A stretch of 64,000 bases of DNA from Candidatus Bathyarchaeota archaeon. Its GTDB lineage: Archaea; Thermoproteota; Bathyarchaeia; Bathyarchaeales; Bathycorpusculaceae. The notes beneath the pieces were generated by a model, which was not told where the DNA came from, ran no database searches, and worked only from the letters and a program-made list of their open reading frames with translations. The stretch is taken from NCBI GenBank assembly GCA_963815095.1, contig CAWFFH010000004.1:128001-192000 (forward strand), read 5' to 3'. Made by a program: the position numbers and the translations under genes. Positions 10,963 to 11,125 of this stretch are shown one piece after another. Every line of letters starts with the position of its first letter. The stretch's first letter is position 1.

Positions 10963-11002
10963 GTTTTCAGTAATAATTATCAAGGAATGAGAGGTGAAAT
11001 GA

Positions 11003-11059
11003 ATGAATCAAAAACGTGCAATCAAAGCAAAAGCTCCGGTGAATTGGGGCGGCTGGTAA
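11003..11059 (+). CDS. Putative 18-aa precursor peptide MNQKRAIKAKAPVNWGGW (ComX-like candidate)
   Basis: GAGGTGA SD at 10991-10997, 5 nt before the ATG; TAA at 11057-11059; followed by hairpin and T tract; adjacent to a prenyltransferase-fold gene. Below the ORF track cut-off. Confidence 0.7.
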   Translation: MNQKRAIKAKAPVNWGGW

Positions 11060-11071
11060 ATAAACGGGTAA

Positions 11072-11125
11072 GGTGCAGGCTTTAGCACCAATTTTCTAAT
11101 TTTAAATCTTTATTTTAAATTCTTA
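11072..11125 (+). terminator. Hairpin plus T-rich tract after the peptide ORF
   Basis: GGTGC-aggcttta-GCACC then aattttctaattttaaatctttatttt. Confidence 0.5.

Follow-up and report, generated by a model that had tools for sequence, protein, structure and literature searches.

Ultrashort candidate precursor peptides encoded beside a divergent isoprenyl diphosphate synthase-like enzyme in Bathyarchaeia

Introduction

Prenylation of Trp residues in peptides is carried out by enzymes that resemble trans-IDS, the isoprenyl diphosphate synthases of the trans type, and those named in the excerpts of a 2026 review are ComQ, PalQ, StheQ and the P domain of ChrPC (PMC13290415). For PalQ, published excerpts report that a C-terminal Trp is required, that a preceding Gly helps and that GW or GGW ends are favoured (PMC10853753; PMC13290415). 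Excerpts of the same and a further source describe a Gln residue, one helical turn before the pseudo-SARM, that is conserved and important in PalQ, StheQ and their relatives (PMC13290415; PMC10853753; bioRxiv 10.64898/2026.08.29.745113). The review excerpts contain no archaeal case of peptide Trp prenylation (PMC13290415), the main text of a survey of archaeal RiPPs does not contain 'prenyl', 'tryptophan' or 'Bathyarchae' (PMC12144867), and a literature search (best-ranked matches, main texts) gave no paper linking Bathyarchaeia or other archaea to Trp-prenylated peptides. All cases described so far in which a synthase-like enzyme prenylates a peptide Trp (ComQ, PalQ, StheQ, ChrPC) are bacterial.

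The locus described here lies in a window of 64,000 nucleotides, the whole stretch of DNA that was analysed, from the genome of a Candidatus Bathyarchaeota archaeon (assembly GCA_963815095.1, contig CAWFFH010000004.1, positions 128,001 to 192,000). As in the PalQ/PalX system of Paenibacillus alvei, a gene for an enzyme of the isoprenoid-synthase fold superfamily adjoins one for a ribosomal peptide with a conserved C-terminal Trp, and the GGW end of the window peptide fits the preference of PalQ. However, the core of PalX begins at residue 73, behind a nitrile-hydratase-like leader domain, whereas the window peptide has 18 residues in total, and about half of the archaeal relatives, unlike PalX, carry one to three residues after the Trp. 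PalQ also belongs to a sequence cluster of its own that is remote from the trans-IDS, whereas the window enzyme still matches PF00348; Gln197 of PalQ has no counterpart in the archaeal family; and the PalQ cluster contains a histidine kinase and no MFS gene, whereas the archaeal family is paired with an MFS gene.

The archaeal family resembles the ComQ/ComX system of Bacillus and the StheQ/StheX system of a Chloroflexus relative in that the enzyme is trans-IDS-derived, retains the first Asp-rich motif and has a second one that differs in sequence. The substrate of ComQ and StheQ is a small secreted peptide, prenylated on a Trp close to its C-terminus, and the same is proposed here for the archaeal family. 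In the ComQ family the pseudo-SARM reads NDxxx and has a Gln three residues before it, whereas the archaeal family has [D/E/N][E/D]FxD and no Gln. The bacterial precursors are longer, StheX having 69 residues and ComX about 55, most of which are removed in each case, whereas the archaeal peptides have 10-21 residues. The comQXPA gene order, with its kinase and regulator, is not present at the archaeal loci, and the ComQ and StheQ systems are bacterial. The best sequence relative of the enzyme is a canonical archaeal GGPP synthase (PDB 1wy0), with which it has the HDDxxD first motif in common; unlike that synthase, it has lost or changed the GKxxR, RRG, FQ and DDxxD elements and the Lys-rich segment, and two normal synthases are encoded elsewhere in the genome.

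Results and discussion

A short ORF between a protease gene and the enzyme gene

The genes and signals at the locus, in window coordinates, are as follows.

7165-8472, EF-1-alpha-type gene, named from its translation
8965-9696, ERCC4 nuclease gene
10075-10962, + strand, S1 (trypsin-fold) serine protease, secreted or membrane-anchored (Trypsin PF00089, 35.3 bits; GDSGGP, hydrophobic N-terminus)
10991-10997, + strand, Shine-Dalgarno (SD) sequence GAGGTGA, 5 nt before the ATG of the peptide ORF
11003-11059 including the stop, + strand, 18-codon peptide ORF with a basic N-terminal half and a tail ending in GGW; candidate precursor
11072-11089, + strand, 5-bp hairpin and T-rich tract, at which the peptide message may end or by which it may be stabilised
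11090-11160, + strand, conserved A+T-rich spacer with a TTTTAAAT-type box; a conserved alignment block that may be the enzyme gene's own archaeal promoter
11161-12165, + strand, divergent trans-isoprenyl diphosphate synthase-like protein of 334 aa (PF00348, 56.9 bits); candidate peptide prenyltransferase
12265-13500, + strand, MFS transporter (PF07690, 47.5 bits); proposed exporter
13570-14025, + strand, small PAS protein
14589-16184, - strand, 7TM-PAS histidine kinase

The window is archaeal and carries the EF-1-alpha-type and ERCC4 nuclease genes listed above. A search for sequencing runs gave five, from two studies of soil metagenomes, all of them DNA. The original prediction, made from the letters alone, had described an ORF with GAGGTGA before an ATG at 11003, a stop at 11057-11059, a GGTGC/GCACC hairpin and a T-rich tract, and all of these are present. 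Translation from ATG (11003-11005) to TAA (11057-11059) gives the 18 residues MNQKRAIKAKAPVNWGGW. As the 16S rRNA of the same genome ends in ...GGATCACCTCCT, the GAGGTGA before the ORF is a perfect 7-nt match to the anti-SD sequence. In terms of archaeal translation, so strong an SD right behind the protease gene is in keeping with a peptide ORF that is an internal cistron on a transcript shared with the protease, and the ORF is probably co-transcribed with the S1 protease gene upstream.

An S1 protease homologue was found within 3.5 kb of the enzyme gene in 15 of 79 related loci (defined below). It lies directly before the peptide ORF in the close clade, and the gene order differs in four loci (L093, L120, L104 and L128), in which a family-like ORF follows the protease gene outside the zones that were counted. 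The protease may be a processing enzyme for the peptide. A stand-alone PAS protein gene after the MFS gene was also seen in the closest relatives (L051-L053 and L068). A ComP-like link to the histidine kinase at 14589-16184 was considered and rejected: the gene had no match at the same place in the closest relatives L031 and L035, and a match to it lay within 3.5 kb in only 3 of the 79 loci.

Conservation of the peptide reading frame

The same ORF was found upstream of enzyme homologues in relatives. In an alignment of nine sequences the SD region GAGGTGAAA was invariant (9/9), as were the SD itself, the TGG-GGN-GGN-TGG run, the TAA stop and the ATG, the last with the restriction that one relative has a TTG start, so that only the TG columns are constant. 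The changes that did occur were largely synonymous (AAT/AAC, CGT/CGA, ATC/ATA, GCA/GCT, GGC/GGT/GGA), and in a distant clade Arg was retained through switches between CGN and AGR codons. Codon positions 1, 2 and 3 differed 57, 67 and 115 times, respectively, in 21 pairs of the same length, and 65 of the 150 differing codons in these pairs were synonymous. Short-ORF alignment, which had been suggested as a check of the original prediction, thus revealed a conserved Trp and synonymous variation in the peptide frame, over the nine sequences as well as the 21 pairs. Two ATGs, at 10987 and 10999, open a rival 32-codon frame, and conservation of that frame would have spoken against the peptide; both ATGs were missing in all eight relatives (8/8). 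Conservation of the frame as coding sequence is therefore directly supported, and we regard the 18-residue frame as very probably a real, conserved gene.

A search for ORFs of this kind over the whole 2.69-Mb genome, with a filter that was designed after the data had been seen (10-25 codons, an SD-like motif, three or more K/R among the first 10 residues, W among the last four and no D/E among the last eight), returned only 11, two of which adjoin the two divergent prenyltransferase genes. Four peptide relatives of 20-21 residues were absent from a collection of 15 billion proteins by exact look-up, and a whole family of functional ORFs with fewer than 22 codons appears to escape gene callers. 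The interval 10500-12500 matched no Rfam family at E values up to 1. The ORF is very short and its hairpin is not above chance (see below), which might be taken to mean that it is no gene, being either a chance ORF or a conserved non-coding element. This we find scarcely credible, given the codon-position pattern, the invariant SD, start and stop, the recurrence on defined strands described below, the rarity of such ORFs in the genome and the lack of an Rfam match.

The tail of the peptide, with Trp at the fourth position from the end and at the end, had been likened in the original prediction to that of ComX. The terminal Trp (W18) is indeed retained across clades, but W15 is replaced by Phe in the sister clade, where the tails end in FGGW, and the tails of other clades have no matching second Trp. 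Since the retained Trp is the terminal one and W15 is not retained, PalQ rather than ComX is the nearest precedent. The basic half, which the original prediction took as a possible leader, is too short for a leader domain of the ComX or PalX kind.

The hairpin and the spacer before the enzyme gene

The GGTGC/GCACC stem has five pairs, four of them G-C, around an 8-nt loop and is followed by AATTTTCTAA. Terminator-like sites were not above chance in the interval 10000-13600 (2 found, as against 3.4 +/- 2.2 in shuffled sequences), and so the hairpin alone is not significant. It was retained in the eight closest relatives only, with compensatory change of both sides in two of the five pairs. A wider fold of 15 sequences had no common structure 3' of the stop, and distant relatives have T-tracts there instead. 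The hairpin or T-tracts, together with the conserved A+T-rich block before the enzyme start, suggest that the peptide message has an end of its own and that the enzyme gene has a separate promoter. As the original prediction proposed, the hairpin may also allow the peptide to be made in excess over the enzyme.

Motifs of the enzyme

The match to PF00348 and the PDB profile matches indicate that the enzyme would have the all-alpha isoprenoid-synthase (trans-IDS) fold. Its best PDB profile match was the GGPP synthase 1wy0 (5e-35), and Ord1 matched at about 1e-22; the StheQ preprint identifies Ord1 (PDB 9v4g-j) as a free-Trp prenyltransferase (bioRxiv 10.64898/2026.08.29.745113). Thirteen NCBIfam synthase models all scored 30-88 bits against cut-offs of 275-600. 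The elements that define the synthases have the following state in the 77 aligned family members.

First Asp-rich motif: DIHDD[IV][IV]D in 76/77, with three Asp (D94, D95, D98) and the His in 77/77
GKxxR block: a gap takes its place in the examples aligned
RRG following the first motif: an invariant Lys (K103, 77/77) plus Thr instead
Phe-Gln ahead of the second motif: small residues that vary (Thr 40, Ala 8, Ser 6, Asn 6 and others of 77)
DDxxD second motif: [D/E/N][E/D]FxD instead
Lys-rich segment that follows the second motif: E-x-x-P-x-P instead

In trans-IDS the first motif is the allylic diphosphate site, and the elements that are lost here serve IPP binding and chain condensation. With the first motif kept and the IPP-site elements lost, the enzyme would be expected to bind a prenyl diphosphate without elongating it. 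The second motif mostly keeps three acidic residues ([D/E]ExxD), and a metal site may persist there. The enzyme lacks the marks of a canonical chain-elongating trans-IDS, having lost GKxxR, RRG and FQxxDDxxD and scoring below the family cut-offs. Nor did it qualify as a member of the ComQ family (IPR033965), as there was no ComQ model among the NCBIfam matches at E values up to 0.01 and the NDxxx pseudo-SARM was not matched. As in the class of peptide Trp prenyltransferases, a short-peptide gene with Trp at or near its C-terminus is adjacent (63 of 79 loci, see below). The Gln that this class has one helical turn ahead of the second motif, and that is Asn in Ord1, is absent as a conserved feature among the 77 members, Gln not being one of the six commonest residues in the column before the motif. 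In a quick maximum-likelihood tree the 77 members were split from the two canonical synthases of the genome with an SH-aLRT support of 99. We place the enzyme in an offshoot of the trans-IDS that is specific to Bathyarchaeia.

Position and strand of the peptide ORF across loci

Scanning one genome per species with an enzyme profile identified 193 relatives, and 79 loci, nearly all from Bathyarchaeia, were kept; by their record titles the relatives of the downstream enzyme come from Bathyarchaeia or Bathyarchaeota MAGs. The enzyme family was concentrated in the order to which the window belongs, with 60/77 genomes in its own family, 15/16 and 5/8 in two sister families and 2/53, 0/44 and 0/22 in others, and was present in 90 of 301 genomes of the class. 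An MFS homologue follows the enzyme gene in 74 of the 79 loci; the counts for the enzyme itself, TIGR04084, PadR and S1 protease were 78, 48, 20 and 15, respectively. The PadR-family regulator (62 bits; for example L073:2517-2930, - strand) thus accompanies the cassette in 20 loci and may regulate it locally.

Peptide candidates were collected with a filter set post hoc (10-25 codons, three or more K/R among the first 10 residues, W among the last four, no D/E among the last eight), which gave 75 in a target zone of 100.8 kb, where 8.5 were expected, as against 85 in 1009 kb of flank, figures to be read in the light of the post hoc filter and of related genomes that are not independent. At least one basic ORF of 10-21 residues with Trp in the last four stood beside the enzyme gene in 63 of the 79 loci, and the filter returned none in the other 16. 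Two arrangements account for the candidates. At 23 loci the ORF lies on the enzyme strand at most 300 nt upstream, as in the window, although four of these matches (L085, L118, L124 and L128) look spurious by eye; at 49 it sits between the enzyme and transporter genes, close behind the stop of the former and on the other strand. None of the 75 candidates fell into the other two combinations of strand and place. The enzyme-transporter spacer of the window itself (12166-12264) has no Trp-ended mini-ORF.

The candidates have a length of 10-21 residues (median 15; n=75). In 34 of them the sequence ends with the last Trp, and in 35, 2 and 4 one, two and three residues, respectively, come after it; Gly stands before it in 37, and a purine-rich SD-like 4-mer lies upstream of 58. 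In one enzyme subclade (L098, L099, L108, L118 and L123) basic mini-ORFs in the same place have Tyr/Phe tails lacking Trp, and so Trp is not universal. The Tyr/Phe tails of these five loci hint at another acceptor residue or another chemistry.

In the window, the enzyme gene is preceded by an ORF with two Trp codons and by a hairpin and T-tract, which could also suggest that the ORF is a cis-acting regulatory uORF that senses Trp as a leader of that gene. However, the ORF cannot act as a leader in the 49 loci in which it lies downstream of the enzyme gene on the opposite strand, and conservation extends to the amino-acid pattern beyond the Trp codons; this explanation is therefore very improbable. 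The link in position and strand between the peptide ORF and the enzyme-transporter pair is observed directly across one order of Bathyarchaeia, and a functional tie of the peptide to that pair is highly likely. Frame conservation, the lack of a start in the rival frame and the linkage at 63 of 79 loci likewise support the original prediction of a precursor peptide for the downstream enzyme, prenylation itself being the part that we infer.

A second cassette and its radical SAM neighbour

Of the four PF00348 genes in the genome of the window, two score 215 and 184 bits and are canonical, while the two divergent ones reach 65 and 57 bits. Outside the window, a second cassette (contig C6, 38866-43001; L132 and L134) consists of a divergent prenyl enzyme gene (- strand), an MFS gene and then a TIGR04084 gene, the only radical SAM/SPASM gene of that family in the genome. 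A 17-codon Trp-ended ORF with an SD (C6:41984-42037, + strand) lies in the spacer, on the strand opposite to the enzyme.

A TIGR04084 gene follows the MFS gene in 48 of the 79 loci (for example L054:5984-6940, 239 bits against a cut-off of 225), and the next-best matches of this member are peptide maturases such as PapB and a nif11-type maturase. Cyclophane-forming enzymes have substrates that combine aromatic with basic residues. It could thus be argued that the peptides, whose aromatic and basic tails resemble such substrates, are modified by the radical SAM/SPASM protein (for instance by an aromatic-to-Lys/Arg cross-link), the prenyl enzyme being a mere neighbour or a secondary tailoring enzyme. 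The distribution of the gene makes this improbable. TIGR04084 is single-copy, occurs in 169 of 301 genomes of the class (as against 90 for the enzyme) and was also found in a Sulfolobus control; many loci have the peptide and no TIGR04084; and in 12 of 12 TIGR04084 loci from enzyme-poor families there was no MFS gene, no prenyl enzyme and no family-like peptide. Since these 12 loci lack all three, the peptide appears to travel with the enzyme-transporter pair. A radical SAM enzyme was likewise rejected as the main partner in the window, where the cluster has no such gene, the sole copy being at C6 and the 12 other loci having no cassette. No paper on the function of the TIGR04084 gene was found in the literature.

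Peptide tails and a proposed pathway

In the quick maximum-likelihood tree the peptide tails clustered by enzyme clade. Seven loci have family-like copies both upstream and downstream of the enzyme gene, and in each of these loci the two copies differ in their N-terminal halves and have the same end, the last four residues being common to both in six and the last three in L069. Such co-variation of tail and enzyme, together with the sharing of tails, is the pattern expected for an enzyme-substrate pair.

These observations bear on the possibility that the peptide is a real, cassette-linked gene product without being the enzyme's substrate. It might be a cationic effector or regulator, a peptide exported unmodified, or an inhibitor or partner of the enzyme or transporter, while the enzyme makes or modifies an isoprenoid lipid that the transporter moves. 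In favour of this, the hallmark Gln of the known Trp prenyltransferases is missing, and the TIGR04084 gene, adjacent in 48 loci, widespread in the class and present in Sulfolobus, hints at a membrane or housekeeping context. However, the tails co-vary with the enzyme clades and paired copies at one locus have the last three or four residues in common, isoprenoid-lipid genes are not consistent neighbours, and the peptides are not hydrophobic, whereas the known small transporter partners are. We therefore consider this explanation unlikely, though the most serious of the alternatives.

The pathway that we favour starts from a very short ribosomal precursor encoded by the 11003-11059 ORF. The enzyme next to it, presumably descended from an archaeal GGPP synthase, would retain the Mg/allylic-diphosphate site but no longer the IPP site and would transfer a prenyl chain to the near-C-terminal Trp, here the terminal Trp of GGW. 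The MFS transporter would then export the lipidated cationic peptide and, in the clade of the window, the basic N-terminal part may be trimmed extracellularly by the S1 protease encoded upstream. On balance we think that the precursor is prenylated on its near-C-terminal Trp by the neighbouring enzyme and then exported, with reservations that come from the lack of a conserved Gln, the 16 loci with no candidate, the Tyr/Phe subclade and one locus with pseudogenes beside an intact peptide ORF (L068, see below). Prenyl transfer, export, trimming and a role of the product as a signal or a membrane-active antibiotic are inferred; the remodelled motifs themselves are a direct observation.

Bathyarchaeia belong to the uncultured archaea that are most abundant in soils and sediments. 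A wider and more tentative proposal, to which we give somewhat less than an even chance, is that an order of this class makes diversified ultrashort (10-21 residue) ribosomal peptides that are lipidated on a near-C-terminal aromatic residue by a GGPP-synthase-derived enzyme and exported by an MFS transporter. This would be the first archaeal prenylated-peptide system, independent of ComQ and PalQ, with another mode of Trp recognition and with tails that resemble pherotypes. If so, uncultured Bathyarchaeia would possess a candidate chemical language or antibiotic, pheromone-like or antibiotic-like in character and open to testing with a single recombinant enzyme and synthetic peptides (10-21 residues), and a third, independently evolved solution to Trp prenylation would exist that dispenses with the 'essential' Gln. 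Such a system would also offer a minimal, leader-free substrate/enzyme pair for peptide lipidation.

Variant loci

In L068 (= G009:C1, also L006 and L035) the enzyme gene is decayed, with three TGA and six TAA codons in the match, and the MFS gene is in four pieces; the protease gene and the peptide ORF are intact, and the same genome has three other enzyme matches. In L038, L040 and L050 and at the second enzyme gene of L037, a long conserved open frame lies upstream of the enzyme gene and is probably the shadow of a gene on the opposite strand. The cassette was also found on contigs binned as Limnocylindrales (Chloroflexota), Nanoarchaeia and Caldiserica (L071, L088 and L127), and mis-binning or transfer is suggested because all three nest inside Bathyarchaeia clades of the enzyme tree. 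Finally, a single spacer of L129 contains two identical copies of a mini-ORF (4333-4383 and 4642-4692, - strand), as is seen with the multi-copy precursor genes of bacterial peptide clusters.
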